From: Flaccisagitta enflata | Taxonomy: Eukaryota | NCBI GenBank assembly: GCA_965153355.1 | Contig: OZ231126.1 | Location: 28,210,001 to 28,274,000, forward strand | DNA length: 64,000 nucleotides | Reading direction: 5' to 3' | In this document: piece by piece, positions 1,370 through 64,000 of the stretch | How the letters are laid out: each line of letters begins with the position of its first letter | Position numbering within the stretch: position 1 is the stretch's first letter | The notes under the pieces: model-generated | The model's database searches: none | Seen by the model: the letters and a program-made list of their open reading frames with translations, nothing else | What the model was told of the DNA's origin: nothing | Program-made: the position numbers and the translations under genes

Positions 1370-1858
1370 AAACTGCATTAAGGTACCACGTTTGTTTTTG
1401 TGAGAAGATGAATATTGCGTGATCAAATTTGATGACTCCTTAAGTATTCCCTACGTCTATACTTACTAAGATTGAAATTGATGCACTGACTGATTGCTGT
1501 ATAGATGCCTTGGTGGATTTGAACGCCATTCTAGTGCCTTGAAAATATTCTAGTCACATTCCCTTTGCCTTCGTTATACACAGTTTATTGTTGGCAAATT
1601 TCATTCCCCTTTATCTTGAAAAAACAATATTCCTATTTTCTTTATCATCAAATCGGTTTTTAGCCCGGGCTACCTGATCCTGATGGACGTTGCCAGAAGT
1701 CGTCAGATCTAGTCACGAAACCGCTAAAAGAGGGCCCCCGAGCTAGCTATTGCTTTCGACGCTGTCCTTCTAACGGATTGAATTCGCGCCGTTGAGCAAG
1801 AGGCGTTTCCCTGAAAAAAAAAACCCAAAAAGTTAGCTTCCCCTGAACGACCAAGACC

Positions 1859-3035
1859 ATGTCACTAACAAGGAATGTTCTGCTGAAAGTGAGTTTCGCT
1901 CAAGCGCGACGTCGGCGATCAGAATCGGAATATGTTCTACCTTCTTCGACTGACAATGACGATGCGTGTGAAGCCGGGAATGTCACCCACAATGCCATCA
2001 ACGCTTCAGAAAACTCGTTTCCGATCTTTCGTGACAACGACGATTCAGTATTTTCAACCCCCAGTCGAGGCGGAAAGGATATCGTTAGGAAAAGCATCGA
2101 TGATTCTCCGTCCAAATGTGACCGGGAAAATGACTCCCCCGAAAAGGAAAATAAAGGTCGTGGTTGATTACATTTTCTAAATTGAGAGAATGAGCGAATC
2201 TGTTTATGAAGATATTTTGTAGGTCAGTGTAGAAAACAAAGTGAAACAAAAACAAACAAGTGACACGGTCACAATATCGTTGCGGACGGGTGGGCAGGGG
2301 CATACAACCCCCGTCCACACCCTCACCCACACACAGACAATCACAACGGCAGTCTAGAATATGCGCGTTTTTGCATGGTTCAATTTGATAATCACGGACG
2401 GACCAATGCACCGACGGACGGACAAAGCCTCTTATAGAGTTGCGTGTCCGCATCTAGAAACACGGAAGTACTGCAGGATGATGATAGTTTATCGATGTTA
2501 ATCTGCATGTACTGGTTCTCCCTCAGAAAATGTAATCCAACCATCAGGTAGGAGATCCTCTCCTTTGCACCGTCTTTCTGGTCGCATTCGACGTCGGCGC
2601 TCATTGTACGACGACAGCGGCGTCCTTCCGCACGTTCGGCGCCGTTCTTCTTCATTTTCCTTTCCGATCGTCAAAAAAGGAACATTCATTAGCGGAAAAA
2701 CAAATACCAAACCGGCTCGAAGATGGACCAAAGTCGAGGACGAATGGATTCCCATCGGCGGAGTCCGTAAGAGAATTCCCGGCGGCCTGAAAGACAGACT
2801 GCAGAAGATACGAGATCGACGGGCGTTGAAAAATGGCTCTGGCGCCAATTCCCGCCAGGATGATGTCGACGGGGTTGTGCCGTTAGTTTCGACGAACGCT
2901 GGAATGGGAGGCAGTCGAGATCCCAATCGACGCCGCGATCAAACGACGCCGGAAGCGCAGAAGACTAAAGAAAGACCGCGCATCGATAGTTTTAGCTCCC
3001 TCGTTGCTGAGGCCGATACACCCTGGTCGGTGTAA
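1859..3035 (+). CDS. Putative two-exon gene (1859..2156 + 2527..3035), ~268-aa low-complexity Ser/Arg/Asp-rich protein of unknown function
   Basis: ATG ORF 1859 and ORF 2565 join in frame through a phase-1 intron (aaag|gtcgtg at 2157 ... ttctccctcag| at 2526). The intron is AT-rich and contains a repeat copy. No recognisable domain. Confidence 0.5.
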
Positions 3036-3141
3036 TTAACGAATTTATGCTCTGTTGTACTGAATCAGTTCAGTACTTACCGGAATTGAAACTATCTCTT
3101 CTTATTGTTACATTGGCTTGTCAAACCAATTGGAATTTTAC

Positions 3142-3203
3142 TACTATTCCGCCTACAGGGAATGTTCGTCGACGAAACAAGGTTGGAGAAAAAGATAAAC
3201 ATT
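3142..3203 (+). repeat. Split direct repeat A1 (left terminus)
   Basis: tactattccgcctacagggaatgttcgtcgacgaaacaaggttggagaaaaagataaacatt, identical to 11521-11582. Confidence 0.95.
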
Positions 3204-3393
3204 CTCCGATGGTGTCCTCGCTTCTCCGACGTGGTCCCTCTCCTGATTCACCAGCAACATTCGACGGAATCAGCTTCAAAAACAATTAAATTTTTTGCAT
3301 TGCCTTCCCCCGCATATTTATTTTTCCTTTCTTTTATTCCCTTTCAGGCTTACTCATAAACAACTTACTAAACATTCATTTAAAGCTAGAGAA

Positions 3394-3822
3394 ATGGCCT
3401 CCACGCTGCCTTTTGTCAAATTGGACCCCAATGCCCATGCTCCAAGGAGAGCTTCTGCTGACGCCGCCGGGCTAGATCTTTTCGCGGTGAACGAAGTCGT
3501 CATTAATCCTGGCAACCGCGAGCGAGTTGAGACCGGCATTCAGGTGGCGATCCCTCGAGGCTACTACGGTAGGATCGCTCCTCGCTCGGGCATGGCTCTG
3601 CGGATGGGCCTCGACGTTGGCGGCGGCGTTATCGACGCCGATTATCGTGGCGGTGTCGCCGTCATTCTTTTCAACCACGGCGCCTCAGAGGTCAAGATTC
3701 TCCCCTCTGATCGCATTGCGCAGCTGATTATCGAGAAGATTGCCTGCCCCGTTCCTGTGGAGGTTGTTTCTCTCGAGGATACCGAACGCGGTTCTGGCGG
3801 TTTCGGCTCCTCTGGCTATTGA
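3394..3822 (+). CDS. dut: Trimeric dUTPase (142 aa) encoded inside the retrotransposon
   Basis: All five dUTPase motifs are present: AGLDL, GRIAPRSG, GVIDADYRG, DRIAQL, RGSGGFGSSG. Intronless; ATG at 3394. Confidence 0.95.
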   Translation: MASTLPFVKLDPNAHAPRRASADAAGLDLFAVNEVVINPGNRERVETGIQVAIPRGYYGRIAPRSGMALRMGLDVGGGVIDADYRGGVAVILFNHGASEVKILPSDRIAQLIIEKIACPVPVEVVSLEDTERGSGGFGSSGY

Positions 3823-3985
3823 GTAATCGATACATCATCAAGATCTAAGCATTCGTATTTCCGTTCCTGTTCGTTATTTTTCTTGCATTTCACGTTTTCT
3901 GTTCTGTTCTGTTACCGTTCTCTTTAGTTATTTCAGATTTACTCAATTAATTTCCTAAGTTTTGACTAGCGTATTTTTCTGCAAA

Positions 3986-5412
3986 ATGGCTGCTACGCCA
4001 AAGCCACCCAAGAGTTATTACGATGCGATGGAGCCTCTGCCGGAAGACTTTCATCCTTACGGTCCCGATTGCGCTCTTCATCGCGAGGTTCAATGCGTCG
4101 CCTTCCATCACGGGTTGTCGCTGGAACACGTTCAGCAGTTAGCCGGCTTTGGCTTCAATTCCGTTACGTCCTTTTCTACGTGCAAGCCCGATGGCACGGA
4201 GAACGAGCAATGTTTGCATCGCCTTGCTTTGGCTCTCTTCAAGTCCGAGCTCATCCGTCATAGGGTGGCCCTAGCGATCGCGCGTTTGAACAGCGGAGAT
4301 CCCTTTGCTCCACTTCCTCCGCCCTTGTTTACGCCTTCAGCATCGCCGTCCGTGTCAAGTGCGGCTTCGTTGCCCCCGGCAAAGAGACAGAAAGTTTCTT
4401 CGAACGAGGCGCAGGCGGCGCCTTCTCCAAACGCATCGCAGTCGACGCTCCCGGCGTCATCTGGAGCGCCGCCTGTAGCAGCGCCGCTTTCTGGCATGGC
4501 CGCGGCCGCGGCTGCTTCCGTTGGGTCTTCTGGCGGCGTCGAGGCCACATCCTCGTCTGGGACGGCGCGAAGAATCGTTACGATGGATGGCGCGAAAGAT
4601 CCCAAGGAGTATTCTGACTCTGATTCTGATTCAAGCTCGGATTCGGATGGTGGCGTCGGTTCTTCCTCGAAGTCCAGCGGAAAGGCGAAGGATGCAAATG
4701 CCATGGTCGAGGGTATCGGCAGTGAGGTGAGAATTCTGATGGTCGGTGATTGGATGATTTCTTTTGAATCTTATTTGATTGACATTGTTTCTGCCATGGA
4801 TATTTTGATATGATGTTTGCCATTTTACAGAGGCTGTCAAAGAGATGGCGCGACTTGCTCGATCACTGCCAGATTCGTATGGAATGTAATTCCGATTCCG
4901 GCGACTACAGCACGATGTTGTACCTGTTCAAGAAAGTCATTCGCTCTGCCAAAGGCTCTCGCGTTGCAGATCCGGTCAAGAACAAGGCTCAGGCGTTGCG
5001 CAGGACTTTGAAGTCCATTTTTCATCTCATCAAGACCCATTGCGTTAATGGAAATTCCGGCGTTGCCACGGTGTTGTACAATGAATTGTCAGGTTTGGCC
5101 GGCTCCTCGACCATCAGACGTGTCAACAAAACGTTACAGCAGACCTTTGGCGCCGCCCGCGGTCGCCTGAGTTCAAACACACGTTCTGACAGCCCGACTG
5201 CCGTTCAGGCTTCTTTCCCAACTAACACCGGACAGACCGCTGGCCGCGGTGGTCGTGGAGCCTTCCAAGGGAATTTTAGGCGTAATTTTCCCAACAATCG
5301 TGGCAACGCCGGCGGCGCCGCTGGGGGCCGTCGCGTTATGCGTTGTTTTATTTGCAATGTCGTTGGCCACGGTTTTCAGCAGTGCCCCCAGCGCCCTGAT
5401 AGTACTTCTTAG
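3986..5412 (+). CDS. Gag-like ORF1 (exons 3986..4726 + 4831..5412, ~440 aa) with C-terminal CCHC zinc knuckle
   Basis: A phase-0 intron (gag|gtgaga at 4727 ... cattttacag| at 4830) joins the two ORFs in frame. An RGG-rich stretch precedes CFICNVVGHGFQQC (CX2CX4HX4C). Confidence 0.8.
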
Positions 5413-6014
5413 TTTCCTTTGATCAATGCCTCAAAGCGTTTTCACCTTCTCGGGAAAGGCAGTAAGACTCTTCTTGGGTCTGTGTAGTAATTTCGTTTAA
5501 AGTCGTAATATGTGATGGTTCCGTCTTGGGATGGCGGCGGCAGCGGTAGCGGAATTTTGCGAGTAATAATGTTTTGATCTGTTATCACCTTTTCTTTACT
5601 ATTTTTGGCGTAGATAATCTTTATTGTTGACACGTTGATTCATCGTTTTGGTTTTTCCTCTTTCAGATAAGCTGATAGCTAGTTTCATTAAAATGGCGTT
5701 TTTTGGTTTCAAAGAAACAAACAGAAATGTTGAATTTAGAGACAGTAACGAGAATGATTGGTTTTATGGAATATGGACTGTGGAAGAGGAAGTGATTTCA
5801 TATATCACATGATATATGTTTGGCGGCATGTTCGTGGTTTGGTTGATGTTCGATCTACCCCCCCCCCCCTCGGCGGTTCATTATGCCGTCGTCGGGCCGT
5901 CGTCGTTGCCACGGATCTGCCTTTGCTCGGCTTTTGCATCTATTTTTGTGCATGCTTTTACATTTATTTTTGTACATGCTAATAATTCATATGATTCTTT
6001 TCATTCTCGGTTGG

Positions 6015-6490
6015 AAATATGTTGTGCCGTGATTTTAGTCACTTGGGTGCCAACATTTGTGAAGCCATTATGGGGCCGTGACTTGGTCACATGAGTGCTC
6101 CTTGGTTTAGCTTCAGTTTTATACCGAGGTTCGATATAATTTTTGACATGTACAATGCAGAGTTTCTCGCGCAAAGGGGAAAAGTGTTTATTTGTGTTTA
6201 AGGCCGTGATTCAGTCACTTGGGTGCCTTCACTTTGGTTTTTTGGGAGATGTTTGCATTTCGTCCGTCTGTCTGCTATGTCTATTTGTCAGTTCGTTTCT
6301 CCCCTGTCAGCATAGTCGTGACAGCAGGCTGTGTCAGCCCTTTTTCCCCGTTATGATTATTTGCACCTCCTTAGACCCTTTGCCGTGATTCGGTCACTTG
6401 AGTGCAAAGCCTTTTCTTTTGTGCCTTGGGCACAGCTTCTTGGTCTTGTTTTTGGCTCGCCGTGATCCTGTCACTTGAGCGCGAGGCCTT
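6015..6490 (+). other. Array of five conserved stem-loop motifs GC-C-GTGAY-(3-4 nt)-GTCAC-WTGRGY-GC, each with a copy-specific closing stem (putative cis-acting RNA element)
   Basis: Cores at 6026-6050, 6075-6098, 6203-6226, 6382-6405 and 6459-6482. The flanks differ between copies but pair in each (atgttg/caacat, aagcca/tggttt, aagg/cctt, ctttgc/gcaaag, ctcgc/gcgag). Confidence 0.75.
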
Positions 6491-6626
6491 TGTGGAGGTG
6501 GTTTGCTCTGCGCGGAATGTACTGTTTCTGGCGTTGCAAGTTAATTGGCTGATGGCACGGGTTTTTTGCCTGAGATGAATTTTCGTCTTATCATATGGTT
6601 TTTTTTTTTCATGGCCTGGTTCTCAT

Positions 6627-6676
<50 letters not shown>

Positions 6677-7573
6677 GCCTTTGCCAAGTACATGAAAATT
6701 CGCGCCACCAGGCCCCCGCTTTCGTCCAGAGATTTTGATCCATTGGCCGCAATGGCCCGTCGCAGTTCGAAGGGCCCTTCATGGGTTGACCTGGAGGGGC
6801 GGCCTGCCTCTCCTCCCGATTTCTCCCGGCTGCCCACGCCAGACGATGTTCTTGCGGGACGAGCAGCCCCCGATTGTGAAGGCTTGAGGCTTCGGTCTCA
6901 ATATACTTTTGTTTGTGGACATTTGCACGATTATGTACCAATTTGGGATTGTTACATGTCCGGTCTGCCGGGCTATGATATTGTGCGCCCATGGCTCAAG
7001 GATGGGGTTCACATCCCTTCCTTTTTTCAACATTTTAAGGGCTCTTTCAATGGGCGTGTTTTCGATTCCTCAACCCCTCCCCCCATGTTTTTTCAGAACG
7101 CTCCAATATGCTGGGAGTACGAGGATTTCATCTCTGATACTGTTTTGAAACGATTGGAGGAGGGTAGCATGCTTTGCCTTGGCCGTGTTGGGGAAACTCC
7201 CCCCCCTTATGTAGTTAATGCTCTCAGCATCGAGCCCATCAAGCCCCGCCTTATATTGTCTATGAGGGCGGTCAATTTGTTTTGTCGCGATACCCCGTTT
7301 TCGCTTGCTCCTTTAACTGATATTGTCAAGGCCATCCCCAATGGCTCTTATTTCTCATCCTATGACGATGTTCAAGGCTACAAGCAATTATCTTTGACAA
7401 AGGAGTCGTACAAATTTTGCGGTTTTGAATGGAACGGTTGGTGGTTTACTGACACAACCCTCCCATTCGGTTGGAAAAACAGTGCTTATGTTTATACAAT
7501 GACGGGTGAGGTTCTTTCTCAATGGCTTCGCTCGAAAGGGGTGCACAATGCCCTCTGGATCGATGACAGATTT
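6677..7573 (+). CDS. pol segment 1: reverse transcriptase (DIRS-order type)
   Basis: KPRLIL, SSYDDVQGYKQL (motif A), TLPFGWKNS (motif B), LWIDD (motif C). Begins after a (CT)n-cag acceptor at 6676; first ATG at 6692. Confidence 0.9.
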
Positions 7574-7673
7574 GTGGGCTTGGCCCCGCCCTTTTGATTT
7601 CATTTTCTACCAGTTTATTTCATTTCCTGCTTGCTTTCTACCATTTTGGTTTTCTTTCATTTCTGTGTCCTAG

Positions 7674-8161
7674 GATTCTCTCGAGCTGCGGGCTAGACGG
7701 GCCTCTTACGTTCTCCTCTACGCGGCAATGGTATTGGGTTATTTCGTTTCTCAACTGAAGAGTACTCTGCTTCCCGTTCAGCGTATGGTCCACCTTGGGC
7801 TGGGAATAGACTCATCATTGATGGCATTTTTTCTGCCGGACAGACTTCGCCAGAAATTTCGTGGTCGAAGGGAAGAACTTTTGTCAACGGGTTTAGCCAC
7901 TGAGAAACAGATGCAGTCATTTATCGGGAAATGTAACCATTTAAAATCTGTTTTCCCCGCTTCATCCCTTTTTACATTCCATTGCCGTCGTTTTGTATCG
8001 CAGCTTGACGAAAATCCTTCCCCCCTACCCCATGAAGTTATGGAGGAAGTCCGTTTTTGGTCCTGTATTGACTCGATGACCGACCCTATTCCTTTTCGTC
8101 GCCATCAGCATTTGCGTCTGAGCCTCTTCACCGACGCGTCTGGGTATGGCTGGGGGGCCTA
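7674..8161 (+). CDS. pol segment 2: RT C-terminal part, connection and start of RNase H
   Basis: LGYFVSQLKSTLLPVQRMVHLGLGIDS and LFTDASGYGWGA. Follows a pyrimidine tract and tag| acceptor at 7673; interrupted by a MITE at 8162. Confidence 0.85.
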
Positions 8162-8495
8162 CCGTATTTTCTCCATTTATCGCCCCCCCTCCAATTAACG
8201 CCCCCCCCTCTTAGAGCTCTCCAGAACAATAATATGAAGGAAGGTGAAATAGCAAATAATCTTTAAAAGTAGAAAGATTTTGCATATTTCAGTGGTTTTT
8301 TTCAAGGATTGAATAAAAAACAAGCAAGATATATCTTATCTTATATATATCTAATATCCTAAGTGGCATTTTTTGTCAATAACGTATAATTAGAGAGTTT
8401 TCACAGATTAAAAGGGGGCGCTAATTGGAGGGTGAAAAGACATTATATTTTTTCAATTTCAAAAGCGCCCGGGGCGCTAATTAGAGAAAATACGG
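8162..8495. mobile_element. 334-bp MITE (Tc1/mariner-pogo type, TA target duplication) inserted in the RNase H domain
   Basis: TIRs ccgtattttctc / gagaaaatacgg flanked by TA at 8160-8161 and 8496-8497. Removing the element plus one TA restores GWGAYVSLPSG in frame. Confidence 0.92.
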
Positions 8496-8497
8496 TA

Positions 8498-9830
8498 TGT
8501 GTCTCTTCCCTCTGGTCCGCTTGTCCTCCGCGACTATTGGCAGTCTGATCTGTTGTCCAATGATATATGCGTCAAAGAGGCTTTGGCTGTTCTGTTTGTC
8601 CTTCAAGCCCTGCCTGAGTCTGTATGGTCACGTCGAGTTGACATTTGTGTTGACAATGAAGGTCTGTCCCTCGCCTGGTCGGGCCTCCGGGCTTCCTCCC
8701 AGGGTTTAGCCGAAGTCTTGAAAGAATTAGCCCTCCTATGTATCGATTTAAATGTTGATTTGCGCCTTCTCTGGGTGCCCACAGATTTCAATATTGCTGA
8801 CGCTCCCTCTCGCGTCTTGTGTCGCAGCGACGCCCGCCTTTCTGACGCTCTCCGTCTTTCCCTTTGGGAGCGTTATGGTCCATTTTCATGGGATTTGATG
8901 GCCCTTCCGTCAAATGCCTTTTCCGTTTATGGGCGTTCTCTGCCTTTCTTCTCTCCTTTTCCCATTGCTGGATGTGCGGGCGTGGATGTTTTTTCTCAGC
9001 GCGCCCCTCGCGGAGTTTCATATGCCTTTCCCCCCTTTGTCATGATCTTGCCCTTGATTGGTTTGTTGGAAGAGTGGGGCGATGTTTGCGCCATTTTGGT
9101 CCTCCCCTTTGACTCCTTTTCTGCACCACCAAGCTGGTTTTCACGACTTTCCCCTTTCATTTTGGAAATCATGCCTTTGGTTTCCAAGACAGACATTGGT
9201 TCTGTCCTTTTTCCTTCATCCGGGGGTTTCGCTCCAAACTGCTATCCCTTAGCCTTTGGCTTGTCTGCTTTCAAATGTTTCTTTCCACCACGGGCCACTC
9301 TCCCTCGGCCCTTTCCTCCTCCTCCTTTCAGGATCCTCATCGGTTCCGACTCAATGTTGCGCCCTTTGGCCGCTTTAAAATGGCCCTCTCCTTTCAATGT
9401 TGAAGTAGTTTGCCTTTCCGGCGCCTCTCTTGCCACTGTCATTTCACAGCTTGTTTTGCGCCTCCCTGCCCAGTTTGATGCCTGCCTCTTTCACGCTGGT
9501 GTCAACGATGTTTCGAGGGGGGGCGATGACTTTCAGGGCTCCTTTCAGTCCTCCTGTTCTTATGCAGCTTCTGTCCTTTCATCGAAATTCCCGGAAGGTG
9601 CGATTTTGTGCTCGTCTGTCTGTCAGACCAAATCCGCGAGCCTTAACGAGCGAGTGCGTGTAGCAAACGAGGCTTTCCGCTCCTTTTCTGCCTCCTATTC
9701 CTGGCGGTATGTTTCTCACGATAATATTCGTTTTGCCGATCTCTCAGACGAGGTCCATTTGAGCGCTTCTGGCGTCGCTAAAATGTATCGCCATTTATGT
9801 TTTGCCTTTCGCTCTCTGCTGAGTAGTTAA
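8498..9830 (+). CDS. pol segment 3: RNase H + DIRS-type N6-adenine methyltransferase-like domain + SGNH/GDSL hydrolase domain
   Basis: RNase H: ICVKEALAV, CVDNE, WVPTDFNIADAPSR. MT-like: WDLMALPSNA...FFSPFP...GVDVFSQ...SYAFPPFVMI...AILVLP. SGNH blocks: IGSDSM, LSGASL, FHAGVND, DEVHLS. Confidence 0.85.
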
Positions 9831-10107
9831 TGATTTTCTAGTTGGCATTATTGCACAATGTTAACAATGTTCCATAATACATCGTGATGCTAACAATGTT
9901 CCACAATGCTTTGCAATGTTCCACAATGTTTCAGTGTATGCGAGTAATTCAGGAGTCGCTTGGCGTTCAATGTGGAAGCTGGGGCAGAGTAAGCGCCATC
10001 TCCGGCGGTCATGGAGTGAAGTTGTTCAGGTAAATTGGTGGTGAATGTGTATGGTGCTTGCTGTTTACGTTCTCTTCTGCCCCCTCTTCCCTTTCCACAT
10101 CCGGCAG

Positions 10108-11328
10108 TTGGATGGTTATTTCACCCGCCGCGACGCGCTGCTCCATCTTGTTAAAGGCTCTAGTTATGAGATTCAAAAATCACGTTTGGCGCAGGATTTG
10201 TGCACCTTCCTCATGGCTCATTCATCGCTGCCCCCTCCGTTGGCGACGGCTGCTTCAATCGATAAGGCAACTCCTGAAGACATTGGGAAATTTCTTTACT
10301 TTCGTGATTCCCGCGGCCGCACACAAATTCATAAATCAAGTTGTCCTTTCATCGGCATGTCGGGCTTAAAGGACTGCGGTTGCCGCGTGGGCCTTGCAGC
10401 TGGAACAATTGACTCCATGATTGGCAAGTTGAGAGCCTATTTCAACAGTCGTGGGCAGACTCAGCCTTATTCTCCCTCGTCTTCTAATTCTAATCCCTGC
10501 GACTCGACGTTTGTCAAGGATTGGCTCAAGGCGGCCTACAAGGAACAGCGGCTTGCCAGAGTCACGCCGCATCAAGCGCCTCCCCTTTTTTCGACGCATT
10601 TACGCCTTCTCGCAGCGGAGATCTCACGCCGCATTGCTTCTCTTCCTTCTTCAGCGCCGCTCTTCCCCGAAAAATTTTGCCTTTTTCGAGATCGCGCTTT
10701 CTTCTTGATTCAATGGTTCAGTGGCGACCGGGCCGGGGATTTGGGACGTGCGGTCGGTCAAGAGGTCTCGCGACCTTCAACGGGTGCCTTAATTCTCAAG
10801 CACACAATTGGAAAAACAATTCGTCAAAGTGGCAGTCAAATTTTAGTGGTGCCTCATATCCCGGAAGATTCGCTTGTTTGCCCTGTCCGCGCTTTCGACG
10901 ATTATGTTGAAGTTTGCAAGTCAGGCGGGATTGATTTGAAGGGAGGTTTTCTTTTTCCTCCCCTCCTGGCCCCTAAGCGGAACAGCGTAAGGAACGCTCC
11001 TTTTAATTCGGCGGCTGCTACAAAGAGAGTGCGTCTCTACATTTCTCCCGATGTGCTTCCTGACGTTTCCGCCCATGGCGCCCGGGCGGGCTGTGCTACA
11101 ACCCTTCTTCTCCTCGGCGCCTCTAAAGATGAGGTCATGGATCATTGTAGGTAGGCTTCAGAGCGCGTTTGCAAGCAGTACCATCAGCTTCAAAAGGTCT
11201 CCAGGATTAAAGGCTCAGCTTTGCGACTTAAAGACGGTCTCCTCGCTTCAGACGAGAAATCAGCAGACAGCGCGGCGGCTTTCTACGAATCCCTGAATAA
11301 TGGGGAACATCAAGCTCCTGCCCTATAA
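10108..11328 (+). pseudogene. Tyrosine recombinase of the retrotransposon, with premature TAG at 11152-11154 (probably from TGG)
   Basis: RDRAFFLIQWFSGDRAGDL (catalytic R), HTIGKT (K), SAHGARAG (HxxR), DHCR*ASERVCKQY (H/W and nucleophile Y). The frame stays open after the stop until TAA at 11326-11328. The 5' start is uncertain; possible upstream exon ~9970-10029. Confidence 0.88.
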
Positions 11329-11455
11329 TCTTTAATCCCCTCTTGCTCTGTAAATAATGATTTGCGTCTGGTTAGTACTGGGTGAGATATGGGTGTTGTG
11401 TGTCCGAGCCTTTTGATTTTCGAGGCCTCTGGGGCCTCGATACTCATGTACTGCA

Positions 11456-11582
11456 GCGCTTTTTGCCCACTCCCTAAACACAGGTTCGTCGACGGGCAGA
11501 AACTGCTTGGCGGAATAGTATACTATTCCGCCTACAGGGAATGTTCGTCGACGAAACAAGGTTGGAGAAAAAGATAAACATT
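11456..11582 (+). repeat. Internal B1-A2 junction of the split direct repeats, with a 24-bp palindrome
   Basis: B1 abuts A2 across ggcggaatagta|tactattccgcc (11509-11532), a perfect palindrome. Confidence 0.93.
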
Positions 11583-11761
11583 TCCGTAGGGGGATAGGCT
11601 GATATAGGCTGGTGAATCAGGTATTGATTATCCTTGTGTGTGTGGTGTTGCTGTATGTGATTGCTTCTCGATCAATATCAATGGAATAATTTTTCATCCC
11701 TTTCCCTCCCTCCCTTCTCTCTTTCACCTGCCTTCTGGCAATCCATACGGCAACACTGCAC

Positions 11762-11830
11762 GCGCTTTTTGCCCACTCCCTAAACACAGGTTCGTCGACG
11801 GGCAGAAACTGCTTGGCGGAATAGTATACT
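11762..11830 (+). repeat. Split direct repeat B2 (right terminus)
   Basis: Identical to 11456-11524. Confidence 0.95.
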
Positions 11831-14052
11831 GTGTTAGTTCGTCATAGTCAGCAAATTTTGCCAAAAAGAACATTTCGTTTAGTCGTTTATAACAGAATTA
11901 GCAAAAAGTTTCGTACTCTGTCTTGAAAACCATACTTTTTGCGGGAGTTATGAGCTAAAATTTGAACCAGAGTATCTCAGTTGGTCATACTAAAGGTAGA
12001 AATGAAGAGCAACTGATAAAATTTCCATACATGGCCATGACCTGTATCTAAAACAAAACCGAAATCAGGATTAATACATGATTTTATTTGCAGAACTGTG
12101 TTTATCAAAAGAAGAGTCTTTGCAACTTTATTGGCCCCTAGTTGGACTCTTTCTAAGGAGAAATGCATCTAGGGGAGTTGGTTAGGTCAACTAGCATGGG
12201 GTTTCAGTCAGCAGAAATTGATATATCAATCCAATTAAGACAAGAGTTGAATGTGCATTCAAAGACCAAAAATCTATTTTAATCTATTTCATTTGTCCCT
12301 ATTAGTTTAACAAGACCAAGTAGGCCAATAGATGCGACGTGTGGATCGTCGAACGAATGCGTTACAGACCAACCGACCGACAGACAGACCGACGGACACA
12401 GCCCGTTATAGAGGTGCTTTGTCGCACCTAAAAACATAAAAATGAACTCTGCTGTCTAACATGCCTCCATTCATCTTTTCTGAAGTTAAAGTATAATCTA
12501 ATTTTCAACTATGAACATTTCTTTCAGATAATTTCTTTAATGCTAGGTGTCTTTTCTTAAGATTTGATGACAAGTACGAAATTTTTTGCACACCCTGTTA
12601 ATAGCGAATGGTGCTGTTTACTTTTGAGCGAATCAAATCGTCCAACTTGTGGTCTTTCCATTCCATTTGCGTTGCTGTTGAGTCAAGCATCTTCATTCAG
12701 GTTTCCTGTCTCCGAATGTGACCTTATATACCCTAAATCCATGCATGTGATCTTTTTTTCACCCATCCATCCTATCTATATCTTTTGAGTCTATATCCTA
12801 ATGGAATCATGAGCATCGGGTCCGTCTGGAGGCACTAGCACTGATACTTGATACATTGATTGGAAAGTAATAAGTATCGAGATGTTCCTACCGTTTCCTC
12901 CTCTTCTCCATCGCCATCCTTCTTCCCCCGAAGTGGGTCTCCCCTCGTTACCCCTCTTTTTAATTTTTTTGCCGATTTTGAAATATCGGAACCGGGCAGA
13001 ATCGGAAATTTAAGGGAAGCAGAGCAGCTAGACGGCGGCATTAAGCCAATGAGAGCGAAGAAAAACGAACCGCAGAAAGCGAAGGATCCTATCAGAGGCC
13101 GGAGTCAGTTACTATCCAACACACCGTCTGCGCGACGACACATTTGCGGGGTGAATCATTGCCATCGTTAGAAAAAGAGAGAGAAAGGAATTCGATTCGG
13201 CACGATTTGAATCGCGTAATAGTAACCGCTCTCTTATTTTGATTGTTTTCTTACATCGTTCATTTACGACAGGGATTACTCGTTGACATGAACCTGGGCA
13301 GGACGGACACGTAAAAAAGAGACAGACCTCGTATTTGTCTCTTTGTCGGTACGTCCGTCATCGCTTTGTCGCTGTTTCTCTCCTACCCTGTTTCCAATAC
13401 AATACTGATCAGCCAGCACGCGTCAAGGGCGAGGCACAAATTTCGACCTCATAACAAACATTTTTCTTCTCTGCGTGCCAAGTTTGGTCTTATGAAAATA
13501 GAAGTAAGGTCTGCTGTCATACGGGGGTGTGATAAACAGATTTTAAGATCCACATGATTTGTTTCTTTCCCTTTTTTCTCACGACTTAGTTTGACGGTTA
13601 TTTATAGCGAGTTATGTCGTAGTACTGTAAATTCTCAAACTATAAATATCGATAAAATATCTCTCATATGTGGTGGTATTGACTGTCCCATATTGATATT
13701 CAATTTTATTCACCATCTCATATTATTATTGAGTATTGACCATCTTCTATTCATATTGACTATCCCATAGTTATTTTGGGATCGAATTAGTTAAAGATGT
13801 CTCATGTAGGGTAGCGAGGGGTGGGGAGGGGTGGTTACACCACCCCTCGCCCCACCCCTCCCACCCCTCGGTTGAAATTGACCACCCCTTGGTTTACCCC
13901 TCCCACCCCTTGGTTTACCCCTCCCACCCCTTGGTTTACCCCTCAGTTTACCCCTCAGTTTACCCCTCGGTCCACCCCTCACCCCACCCCACCCCACCCC
14001 TCACCCCACCCCTCGGTTTTTTTTATACTTCAAAAATTTGATAAAATTGCTA

Positions 14053-15900: not shown

Positions 15901-16337
15901 TTAATTAAGTTAAAAGCTCATTATCCCTCACTACCCCTCAACCACCCCTAACCCCACCCCTCGCCTTACCCCTCACCCCACCCCTCGCCCCACCCCACCC
16001 TTCACCCCACCCCTCACCCCACCCCTCGCCCTACCCCACCCCTCGCTTTACCCCCCCCCACCCCTCGCTTTACCCCTCCCACCCCTCGCTACCCCTACAT
16101 AATTTCAAACCACCCTTCACTTTTTTACCACCCCTAGCTACCCCTCACTACCCCTCACTGAGACATCTATAACTAATTTCAGCCTTATTGGGATATTGAT
16201 TAAAACTCATAATGATAGGATTTCTAACTCACATTATATTGGTATATATAAGGTTAGTGTTTCTAAGTATCGAATGAAGAATTGAGATCCCCGTTTGATG
16301 ACAGTCCTTCTAATGACATCAAGATTAAGTTAAGAAG

Positions 16338-45430
<29,093 letters not shown>

Positions 45431-50575: not shown

Positions 50576-62309
<11,734 letters not shown>

Positions 62310-64000
62310 CTGCGACAAGACACGTCATGATACATACACGCATGAATGACCACGGCCACGGAAAGAGGAAGATGGGAGGCGTGGGATGGTGTAAGGGAGG
62401 GTACGACAGGGAAGGCATGAGAGAACAAGGAGAATTAGAACGCAGCAAAGATGGAGAAGAGGATGAAGAAGTAGGAGAAGATGGAGAAGAAGAAAAAGAA
62501 GAAGAAGAAGAAGAAGAAGAAGAAGAAGAAGAAGAAGAAGAAGAAGAAGAAGAAGAAGAAGAAGAAGAAGAAGAAGGAGAAGGGGGAGAAGAGGACGAAC
62601 AGAAACAACAAAAAACAACGTCTATTCGTCCGTCGGTATGTAACGTTCATCGTTTTCTGAGCGGTGTCGGCCAAACCGGTCGCGCATGGTATCTGGCTTT
62701 CTGATGATAAAGTTCACACCGCATTAGTTATGAACGCAACTGGAAATTTCAGTTGAAAGATGTACTAATGAATGAATAGATAAATGAACAGAAACAACAG
62801 CAACAAAAACAAAACAACAATAACAATAACAAAAAAAAAAAACAAAAACAAAAACGAAAACAAAAACAACAACCATAACAACAACAACAACATCAACAAC
62901 AAAATGCGTTAGCGCAAGAAGCACAAGTAAGGCAACGTTTGGGGACAATGCCAATGGGGAAACGAGGAGAAATAGAGAGCGTTGCTCAGGAGTCTGGAGT
63001 CTCCAGTGGAGAAATCTTTTTAGTCCCGGACTAGCGACTCTGTAAGAGGCTTTGTCCGTCCGTCCGTCCGTCCATCCGTTGATCCGTCCGTCCGTCAACG
63101 AAGGTCAAAAAGTGGAGAAGCAAGCGTTTTAGTAGAGCTTGAAAAAGGTTAGCCCGTAGATCTCAACAGTTCAGATTTTGCTCTGAAATCAAATTCAACT
63201 GCGTGTAAGATAAAATCACTACGGCCAAACGCTAGCTTCTACAATCCCGGCAACTTCACCGGCGGAGAGAGTGTTAAGTTCTGCTTTGGATTTCAAATGA
63301 AAATTAGGAGATCAAAGCACCCCCGATTTTTAATATTGAATCAATTGACACAATGTTTCATACAATTTTCTGTTCATGCGCTCAAAGTTAGAGTCCAGGG
63401 ACGTAAAGGTCAACTTAAGCACAGACAGTCATATTTTTTTCTAATCTACATTATTTCACATGTATTAAGGTCAATCTTTTTTTCATCGATGTTACTCATA
63501 GGGTTTGGCAGATATTTCACTTTTCTTACTAGACCTACTTCCCTACTCGGATGAAGACTAAAGTAAAGGGGATTTTTATGAAGCAATTTTCCTTGTCATC
63601 ATTGCCGTCTTATTATGCTGTAGTGAGAGACGCACTATCATTAACTCTCTATGGAAACATTTTTTTTGAGGCGCCAAATGGCGTTTTACAGATTACTGCA
63701 TGCAGTTGGATTCACCTTTGGTGTTCTGATGCAATTTATACGTATCAGCGTATCTCTTTGTCTTATTATTCGTTGGTTTTAGCCAGTCTGTCTTTCTTTC
63801 TCAACGCGTAATGATACATTGGAAAGTTAACTCTGACTTAGAGAAAATGTCGGTGGAGACGAGTTTTAGAAATAAAAATGTTTGTACAACATCAAAATGA
63901 GTAATGCTGAAGACATATGATTTCCACAGTTTTATTCAGCGCCGTCACTTTAGTCAAATTGCTGAAAATGATTTTCAAGCGAGCTTTTTTACCCCCGCTG

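Follow-up and report, generated by a model that had tools for sequence, protein, structure and literature searches.

A 64,000-nt stretch of the genome of Flaccisagitta enflata (assembly GCA_965153355.1, contig OZ231126.1, positions 28,210,001 to 28,274,000 of the forward strand), referred to here as the window, contains at its positions 3142–11830 a transposable element of 8,689 bp, or 8,353 bp without a miniature inverted-repeat transposable element (MITE) that inserted later. All genes of the element lie on the + strand, in the order dUTPase, gag, pol, then a tyrosine recombinase (YR); pol encodes reverse transcriptase (RT), RNase H (RH), a methyltransferase-like (MT) domain and an SGNH hydrolase. 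The element is a genuine, well bounded and recently mobile unit, and it represents a large unnamed family in which MT and SGNH domains are combined in one pol. Very probably, it is a single YR retrotransposon of the DIRS order with the Pat1-like structure of the echinoderm form, present as a polymorphic and roughly hemizygous insertion.

Split direct repeats and the insertion site

The element is delimited by two pairs of direct repeats on the + strand. The 5′ repeat A1 (3142–3203) equals its internal copy A2 (11521–11582) over 62 nt, and the internal copy B1 (11456–11524) equals the 3′ terminal repeat B2 (11762–11830) over 69 nt, in both cases with 100% identity. A1 opens with a TACT core shared with the target, B2 ends in TACT, and A2 overlaps B1 by the same four letters; a spacer (11583–11761) separates A2 from B2. 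These are exactly the two direct-repeat families found by a repeat search of positions 1500–13500, which revealed no inverted repeat of at least 40 nt. Alignment by blastn lengthens A to approximately 67 nt and B to approximately 76 nt, at 98.5–98.7% identity, and for further copies within the window it gives microsatellite matches only. The succession A1, internal region, B1A2, spacer and B2 is the split-direct-repeat pattern of PAT, Ngaro and VIPER elements, as outlined in the sections of PMC9210276 and PMC6681497 cited here.

Three sets of Logan contigs were aligned to positions 2600–12400: those of X1 and X2, two runs from the same organism, and those of X3, a marine metagenome. An empty-site joint that passes from 3142 to 11828 and skips 8,685 bases is carried by one contig in each run, at a depth of 102 in X1 and of 180 in X2, showing that the insertion is polymorphic and that the A1–B2 unit is present or absent as a single block. 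An earlier note, made from the letters of the DNA alone, had proposed a complete YR retrotransposon within split direct repeats, with a stand-alone dUTPase as part of the mobile unit; the identity of both repeat pairs and the joint bear out the former, and the latter holds as well, since the dUTPase is removed with the rest. The sequencing depth in X1 is approximately 152 in the left flank and 88 in the element, which indicates that filled and empty alleles coexist at roughly equal dose. Within the flank itself (2600–3102), a second haplotype in X1 differs at 9 of 503 positions, a heterozygosity of approximately 1.8%.

The same data bear on the idea that the element is a composite or an artefact, assembled from nested unrelated insertions or mis-assembled between chance repeats. 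The MITE is indeed such a nested insertion, but a single joint removes the entire unit, the element depth in X1 is even over 8.3 kb, and pieces with 98–100% identity to the element are present in X2 and X3. The gene order also recurs elsewhere: a 4,679-bp metagenome contig (L001), the sole locus found by a metagenome scan with a 6-row pol alignment, encodes a 58% identical pol and displays RT, RH, MT, SGNH and YR, followed by a B/A junction. We therefore give the composite origin hardly any credence.

The filled allele reads ..TTTTAC-TACT-ATTCC.. at its left end and ..AATAG-TA-TACT-GTGTT.. at its right end. In the empty allele TACT occurs once, and likewise at the internal B1/A2 junction (..GGCGGAATAGTA-TACT-ATTCCGCC..). 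The joint shares four letters (TACT) by reading of the sequence and three by alignment. The single TACT at both the empty site and the B1/A2 joint identifies the core as the element's own rather than as a target duplication, and no target-site duplication is found beyond it. In the integration model described for DIRS-type YR elements, the 3-bp junction of a circular intermediate recombines with an identical genomic sequence, creating no duplication and leaving the trinucleotide at both ends (PMC3266345 and PMC7192593, in the parts cited). The TACT pattern at the filled, empty and internal sites matches this model.

The B1/A2 junction is centred on a perfect 24-bp palindrome, GGCGGAATAGTATACTATTCCGCC (11509–11532), with 8-bp arms GCGGAATA and TATTCCGC, a 6-bp spacer and the TACT; by blastn, the joint is self-complementary over 11485–11555. 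We presume this palindrome to be the recombination core. Both 8-bp arms are retained in L001, where the 6-bp spacer between them ends in TAC-T, and approximately 80 columns around the junction are about 80% identical between the window and L001, against 58% for the pol protein. Such higher conservation of the junction than of the proteins is as expected of a cis-acting site. The identity within the A and B pairs and the presence of both alleles suggest that the insertion is fairly recent: repeats are expected to be identical at the time of insertion (PMC6681497, in part). However, their dating power is weak at lengths of only 62–69 nt, set against a divergence of roughly 1.5% between the X1 and X2 copies; from the window, the X2 copy differs by about 1.3–1.7%. 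With empty and filled alleles and a conserved palindromic core, the locus offers a defined substrate pair for studies of eukaryotic YR integration.

Coding capacity and relatives

The Pfam scan covered seven ORF pieces of the element, two of which gave no family, and no integrase (DDE) or aspartic protease family was found in any scan of the window ORFs. The profile searches, of which the earlier note had proposed those for dUTPase, Dam/N6-MTase, SGNH and Phage_integrase as a check, match the dUTPase (PF00692, E 2.2e-37, profile positions 2–129 of 129) and the ALOG-type N-terminal part of the YR (E 6e-20), as well as Phage_integrase in a 99% identical relative of the YR (P0284, E 0.0012) and Dam (PF05869) in 1 of 26 scanned homologues (E 1e-4). 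The calls for RT (RVT_1, E 3.2e-5, 24.2 bits, under the 29.6 cut-off), SGNH (Lipase_GDSL_2, E 0.0035, below cut-off) and the CCHC knuckle of Gag (zf-CCHC_2, E 0.059) are weak, and these assignments were therefore checked by homologue alignment and structure matching.

The first pol exon (6692–7573, starting at Met 6692 or Met 6773) encodes the fingers and palm of the RT and ends in ..LWIDDRF; the RT of L001 is conserved from ..DFDP..AMA+SS onward. According to the ORF and the homologue alignment, the first part of exon 2 (7674–8159) comprises the RT thumb and connection and the start of RNase H (..LFTDASGYGWGA), which continues beyond the MITE at 8496–8810. The MT-like domain with the motif SYAFPPF follows at 8811–9311, and the SGNH/GDSL hydrolase is fused in frame at the end of pol (9320–9830, stop TAA at 9828–9830). 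We aligned the RH–MT–SGNH part with 14 homologues of 25–63% identity. Invariant in all 15 sequences are the D/E/D/D residues of RNase H (D13, E28, D53 and D102, along with N99), the Y-x-F-P-P motif of the MT-like domain and four SGNH blocks, namely GDS, G, H-x-G-x-N and D-x-x-H (D285-S286, G309, H333-G335-N337 and D418/H421, with S286, G309, N337 and H421 in the catalytic positions), for which the window reads GSDS, G, HAGVND and DEVH.

Structure prediction agrees with these assignments. In the AlphaFold model of the C-terminal pol stretch (predicted local distance difference test, pLDDT, 85.1), the best Foldseek match of the SGNH domain is 4rw0 (E 6.9e-8, target TM 0.73, probability 1.00), with further matches to PAF-AH Ib, sialate O-acetylesterases and TesA (E range 7e-8 to 2e-6 for the four together). 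The MT-like domain is modelled by AlphaFold2 as an S-adenosylmethionine (SAM)-methyltransferase fold with a pLDDT of 94.0 and a predicted template modelling score of 0.88. Its best structural match is PCIF1/CAPAM, an N6-adenine methyltransferase specific for adenosine at the mRNA cap (Foldseek E 1.9e-5; VIA Z 11.3, root mean square deviation 3.4, 144 aligned), followed by DIMT1/KsgA, Erm and METTL5 (Z from 9.6); the Dam enzymes of T4 and E. coli reach Z 8.1–8.7. The co-occurrence of MT-like and SGNH domains in one pol ORF, as the earlier note had read it, is thus confirmed by the invariant blocks and the fold matches. N6-adenine methyltransferases have the catalytic motif (D/N/S)PP(Y/F/W), and the invariant motif here is F-P-P-F, without a polar first residue. 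The substitution of FPPF for NPPF or DPPY in the modelled N6-adenine-methyltransferase fold makes an RNA target or a non-catalytic role worth considering; in the published accounts consulted, the MT domain of DIRS and PAT elements has no known function. By analogy, the conserved SGNH domain would be an active hydrolase.

The MT-like domain also bears on another classification, in which the element would be an Ngaro, the SGNH hydrolase and split direct repeats would be Ngaro traits, and the MT-like stretch would be a misread linker. Published Ngaro elements do have split direct repeats, and some carry an SGNH ORF (PMC9210276, in part). However, the supposed linker adopts a confident methyltransferase fold and has homologues in 33 pols, where MT forms the C-terminal domain and the protein stops just behind it. 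One homologue matches the Dam profile, which has been used for the detection of the DIRS MT domain (PMC3783388, in the part cited), while the window's own MT-like domain has no match to it. The SGNH domain, moreover, lies within pol and upstream of the YR, not downstream. We regard the Ngaro assignment as very improbable.

To place the pol among its relatives, we searched with the 449-aa C-terminal pol ORF using HMMER, which gave 895 proteins at E ≤ 1e-3 and 48 at E ≤ 1e-30, many of them spanning the whole query. The family tree was built from the best 150 matches and L001, and 60 of its rows are near-complete over RH–MT. Beyond the MT domain, 17 of these continue into SGNH, 33 end within 40 residues, as canonical DIRS and PAT pols do, and 10 have other tails. 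The SGNH rows fall into three groups (SH-aLRT 100, 100 and 95), all unnamed; the group of the window has 12 members, including L001, P0004–P0009 and P0012. Domain scans of 26 homologues recovered RVT_1 in 16, RT_RNaseH in 15 and Lipase_GDSL_2 in 12; RVT_1 and Lipase_GDSL_2 occur in one protein in 4 of 10 scanned, and none of 10 clusters looked up has a name. The RH–MT–SGNH fusion is therefore a trait of a large unnamed family and not of this copy alone. The combination of MT, SGNH and dUTPase was one that the earlier note did not know from described DIRS-order families: we likewise found no such combination in the open literature, but the MT–SGNH part is not peculiar to this copy. Either one origin of the SGNH fusion or several would fit the tree, in which the deep branches have 81–83% support and some rows ending after MT within the SGNH groups are short fragments that blur the labels. 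Two proteins, P0154 and P0004 (longest contig 3121 nt each, probably the same contig), represent a 63% identical relative in which the exon-2 part and the RH–MT–SGNH part are separate ORFs, with a break near the position of the MITE in the window.

The YR exon (10108–11328) encodes the ALOG-type N-terminal part and the catalytic domain. Its in-frame TAG (11152–11154) at codon 370 of 427 removes the C-terminal 58 residues, in which we take the catalytic tyrosine to lie. At this position a tryptophan is present both in P0284, a protein of 427 aa with 5 differences over its length, and in L001. Nearly all of the 108 YR relatives lack a name; among those that have one, bivalve proteins of 33–36% identity match best, and an amphioxus protein is a weaker match (E 6.5e-5). 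The second defect of this copy is the MITE (8160–8495), a 336-bp secondary insertion in RNase H with 14-bp terminal inverted repeats TACCGTATTTTCTC and a TA duplication. A contig from X2 that lacks the MITE joins 8159 to 8496, so that the frame runs on uninterrupted, and L001 likewise shows no break at this point. With its RNase H split and its YR shortened, the window copy is no longer autonomous. The MITE family itself has a very high copy number, with a summed contig depth of approximately 377,000 compared with 88 for the element; it is present in X1 and X2 and abundant in X3. L001 also looks decayed, with a YR frameshift (ORFs 3064–3969 and 3896–4285 overlap but differ in frame) and with TT for the RT intron donor.

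At the 5′ end, the element encodes an intact stand-alone dUTPase of 142 aa (3394–3822). The full-length profile match and the conserved motifs (as named for trimeric dUTPases) identify it as an enzyme of the trimeric type, and 44 columns are invariant in 12 sequences, with all catalytic motifs intact. It aligns without gaps to human DUT (145 bits, 74 of 138 residues identical, or approximately 54%, by a hand count of the alignment). Among solved structures it ranks with the enzymes of eukaryotes and large DNA viruses, ahead of those of M. tuberculosis (99 bits), feline immunodeficiency virus (FIV, 78 bits) and E. coli (63 bits). By these comparisons, the dUTPase is of cellular, not retroviral, type. 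In a collection of 5.8 billion proteins its nearest neighbours are five unnamed 142-aa clusters of 76–80% identity, with more at 58–67%; the next tier is a broad mass of approximately 55% identity that includes named acidobacterial enzymes (56% to one of them).

Such a gene might be a one-off passenger, derived from a cellular mRNA that was acquired by this copy or by its direct forerunner, rather than a stable feature of the lineage. One 5′ region is available, as L001 begins inside pol and the window has no second copy, and the enzyme is closer to the cellular human and acidobacterial dUTPases than to that of FIV. The GC content at third codon positions is 0.62, resembling gag and the host exons and unlike pol and YR (approximately 0.50); base composition does not separate a host from an element origin of the gene. 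On the other side, every catalytic motif is intact, and the tiers of dUTPase relatives at 76–80% and 58–67% identity parallel those of the YR relatives at 72–77% and 51–57%. This circumstantial parallel suggests that related elements may carry the dUTPase too, and we consider a one-off capture unlikely, though a serious contender. By analogy, the enzyme would keep uracil out of the complementary DNA (cDNA).

Putative introns, hairpins and expression

Three places in the element have the appearance of introns. The first gag exon (3986–4726) opens with the ATG at 3986, matches no Pfam family and ends in phase 0 at GAG|GTGAGA. The putative intron behind it (4727–4830, 104 nt, phase 0, GTGAGA...ACAG) has GT..AG borders, and its excision joins the ORFs 3959–4813 and 4783–5412 in frame. 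Exon 2 (4831–5412) contains a CCHC zinc knuckle, CFICNVVGHGFQQC, of the form CX2CX4HX4C at 5344–5385. The putative RT intron (7574–7673, 100 nt, GT..AG, phase 0, GTGGGC...CTAG) lies directly behind the YIDDR-type motif, and its excision joins ..LWIDDRF to DSLELRARR... In L001, the RT ORF is broken at the same place (868–1003), with the same AG|GATTCT acceptor. We compared proteins of the window's clade, as defined by tree position or at least 40% identity, with those of other clades. Each of the 11 clade members that reach the RT break has its start between −37 and +36 residues from it, and none has an exon-1 match. By contrast, the frame continues through YIDDR in 34 proteins of other clades, which match RT exon 1 at E 1e-6 to 1e-58. 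This pattern points to an RT interruption that would be clade-wide and would survive retrotransposition.

Ahead of the YR exon lies a possible leader exon (9970–10029, ATG and 19 codons), ending in CAG|GTAAAT, and a probable intron of 78 nt (10030–10107) with a polypyrimidine tract and a CAG acceptor (10105–10107). Conservation of the YR starts right after the tract and CAG, and the tract ends in TAG in L001. In 13 of the 14 YR relatives that extend upstream, a Gln directly precedes the conserved L-x-G-Y/F start, and the sequence before this Gln is rich in F, L, S and P and unconserved. A (TC)23 tract followed by CAG (6629–6676, + strand, found by TRF) stands just upstream of the pol frame and resembles a 3′ splice acceptor, which it may be. 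We also considered a gag exon-1 donor shared with the acceptors of pol (6677) and YR (10108); all are in phase 0, and nothing else supports the pairing.

The spacer between gag and pol contains five hairpins of approximately 31 nt (6023–6486), with the core GCCGTGA-N3-5-GTCACTTGRGYGC. The pattern CCGTGA-N3-5-GTCAC has five matches at 6027–6474, on the sense strand only, whereas 0.04 are expected by chance. In the five aligned units the core is invariant, the three outermost pairs display compensatory changes, and 96.4% of cells are paired; this covariation was reached in 1 of 500 shuffles, and shifted partners lower the pairing to 27–55%. As it comes from five paralogous copies, the covariation is suggestive. 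The support is limited to the repeated unit: the whole spacer (5990–6520) folds with no unusual stability (z −1.16). Rfam does not match the array and gives nothing at gathering score across the window; its one match in the element is at chance level (E 0.64). The introns and RNA motif array listed in the earlier note are accordingly upheld as GT–AG introns of putative status and as five covarying hairpins, splicing being predicted from sequence features.

Taken together, expression of the element would require splicing of the gag and RT introns and use of the conserved acceptor before the YR exon. Since genomic copies keep the introns, an unspliced RNA must be the template. Intron-containing Penelope-like elements, which have an unrelated RT lineage and a GIY-YIG endonuclease, likewise keep spliceosomal introns in their genomic copies; for DIRS-order elements we found no natural introns in the open literature. 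Following the published split-repeat model, a full-length unspliced transcript would be reverse-transcribed, and annealing of the A and B repeats would regenerate a circular DNA with a B–A joint identical to the internal B1A2 junction. Recombination between the palindromic core and a genomic TACT would then be the work of the YR. The five hairpins are candidates for marking the unspliced RNA, be it through Gag binding, packaging or export. Conserved introns in gag and RT would imply separate messenger and template RNAs, with the hairpin array as a concrete candidate for the signal involved.

Classification and relation to known elements

The classification of the element follows from its structure. 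Membership in the DIRS order is indicated by RVT_1 and ALOG in the window, Phage_integrase in P0284 and the invariant RNase H residues. In the structural key of PMC4157794 (in the part cited), the presence of MT leads to the DIRS group, split direct repeats to PAT, a Gag zinc finger to the Pat1-like elements, and internal repeats 3′ of a co-oriented YR to the echinoderm form. The window element displays each of these: the MT domain lies downstream of RNase H, the repeats are arranged as A1...B1A2...B2, Gag has its CCHC motif, and B1A2 (11456–11582) lies beyond the YR stop at 11328, with the YR in the orientation of pol. The Ngaro branch disagrees with the presence of MT and with an SGNH domain inside pol, and the DIRS1-like branch with terminal repeats that are direct and with the lack of inverted repeat pairs in the interval searched.

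The closest structural counterpart is thus the SpPat1 type of echinoderms, which shares the repeat pattern, the internal repeats 3′ of the YR, the zinc knuckle, the RT–RH–MT pol and the co-oriented YR (PMC4157794). Unlike it, the window element adds a dUTPase ORF 5′ of gag, an SGNH domain after MT, the hairpin array, putative introns in gag and RT and a putatively spliced YR exon. The sister DIRS1-like elements resemble it in having an RT–RH–MT pol and a YR and in integrating at a short core with no duplication, but their terminal repeats are inverted and accompanied by an internal complementary region; they are also under 6 kb in length (PMC3266345, in part), compared with 8.4–8.7 kb for the window element, a size that adds to its differences from the SpPat1 type. 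SGNH-bearing Ngaro elements such as DIRS-53_XT from Xenopus share the split direct repeats and a hydrolase of unknown role (PMC9210276), but MT is absent from them, and the hydrolase has an ORF of its own behind the YR instead of being fused to pol ahead of it.

Accessory enzymes of similar kinds are known from other retroelements. Trimeric-type dUTPases are encoded by non-primate lentiviruses and betaretroviruses, by the rotifer elements Juno, Vesta and TelKA, and by gypsy-like elements of basidiomycetes and planarians (PMC5408684 and PMC6431247, in the sections cited). Theirs is a domain inside pol, usually between protease and RT, whereas the window element has a separate first ORF, relies on a YR instead of an integrase, and has a dUTPase much closer to the cellular than to the FIV enzyme. 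SGNH/GDSL esterases with intact catalytic residues were recruited by CR1, L2 and RTEX elements (in ORF1p), by rotifer Vesta (in ORF3) and by Athena, in captures inferred to be independent among these groups (PMC5408684); the carrier class and the position differ from those found here. In the open literature, we found dUTPase in retroviruses and long terminal repeat (LTR) elements and in no YR retrotransposon, and no pol combining MT and SGNH, MT being confined to DIRS and PAT and the hydrolase to some Ngaro, after the YR. The novelty of the combination of dUTPase, SGNH-bearing pol, introns and hairpins is provisional, resting as it does on the open literature without Repbase and Dfam.

Several points weigh against the placement and the reconstruction given above. 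The PAT and Pat1-like placement is structural only, and the window's own Pfam scores for RT, CCHC and SGNH fall short of the curated cut-offs. L001 has TT, not GT, at the RT donor position, and a matching YR-leader donor but no in-frame ATG. Among 12.2 million reads, approximately 6% of one polyA RNA-seq set, 22 were placed, all on the MITE or the right-flank repeat, and 27 of 30 bins remained empty. X1 is possibly the sample behind the window assembly and hence not independent, and the contig alignment leaves room for extra letters within the empty-site joint. The 5′ region, and with it the dUTPase, is known from the window copy alone.

Beyond the single DIRS-order element, a wider reading can be entertained, in which the clade is a distinct and old "complex" YR lineage of marine eukaryotes. 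Its gag, pol and YR would be expressed from differentially spliced RNAs, only the unspliced, hairpin-marked RNA would be copied, and three accessory enzymes (dUTPase, a domain of N6-adenine-methyltransferase fold and an SGNH esterase) would have been stably recruited. The same reading would make the retrovirus-like division of labour an independent evolution within the DIRS order. We offer the two jointly and tentatively, as a possibility somewhat short of even. The "virus-like" character suggested in the earlier note found no support: the element has no env-like ORF, and the one RNA library put no reads on the element itself. A search of viral contigs with the pol alignment gave 77 pattern matches, with no relatives among them. 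The ESM Atlas returned one lead (score 0.93) in a eukaryotic cluster whose commonest phylum is Mollusca, which was not used as evidence.

YR retrotransposons, the least studied order of retroelements, are currently sorted according to whether MT is present and by the hydrolase, a key that is blurred by a large family with both in one pol. Retroviruses and a few LTR elements are the retroelements to which a dUTPase has been tied until now; its occurrence in a YR element would widen that range and would speak for the avoidance of uracil as a general pressure on the synthesis of cDNA in the cytoplasm. The most interesting claim would be that of a splicing-dependent, retrovirus-like expression strategy.

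Just right of the insertion, positions 12083–12400 belong to an extremely abundant repeat (depth approximately 970,000), with loose ends rich in short repeats of the CCGACCAACC type. Further downstream lie host genes, which by themselves indicate a eukaryote and probably an animal: exons of a kinesin-13-like motor are located at 16329–24431 on the + strand (Pfam Kinesin, E 1e-13 and 2e-17), and an FHA-domain exon of a KIF1-like kinesin at approximately 61000–62650 on the − strand. Long (TC)n and AAGG/AAAG-like microsatellites occupy 16500–17300 and 41800–42600, where they give rise to spurious long ORFs on both strands.

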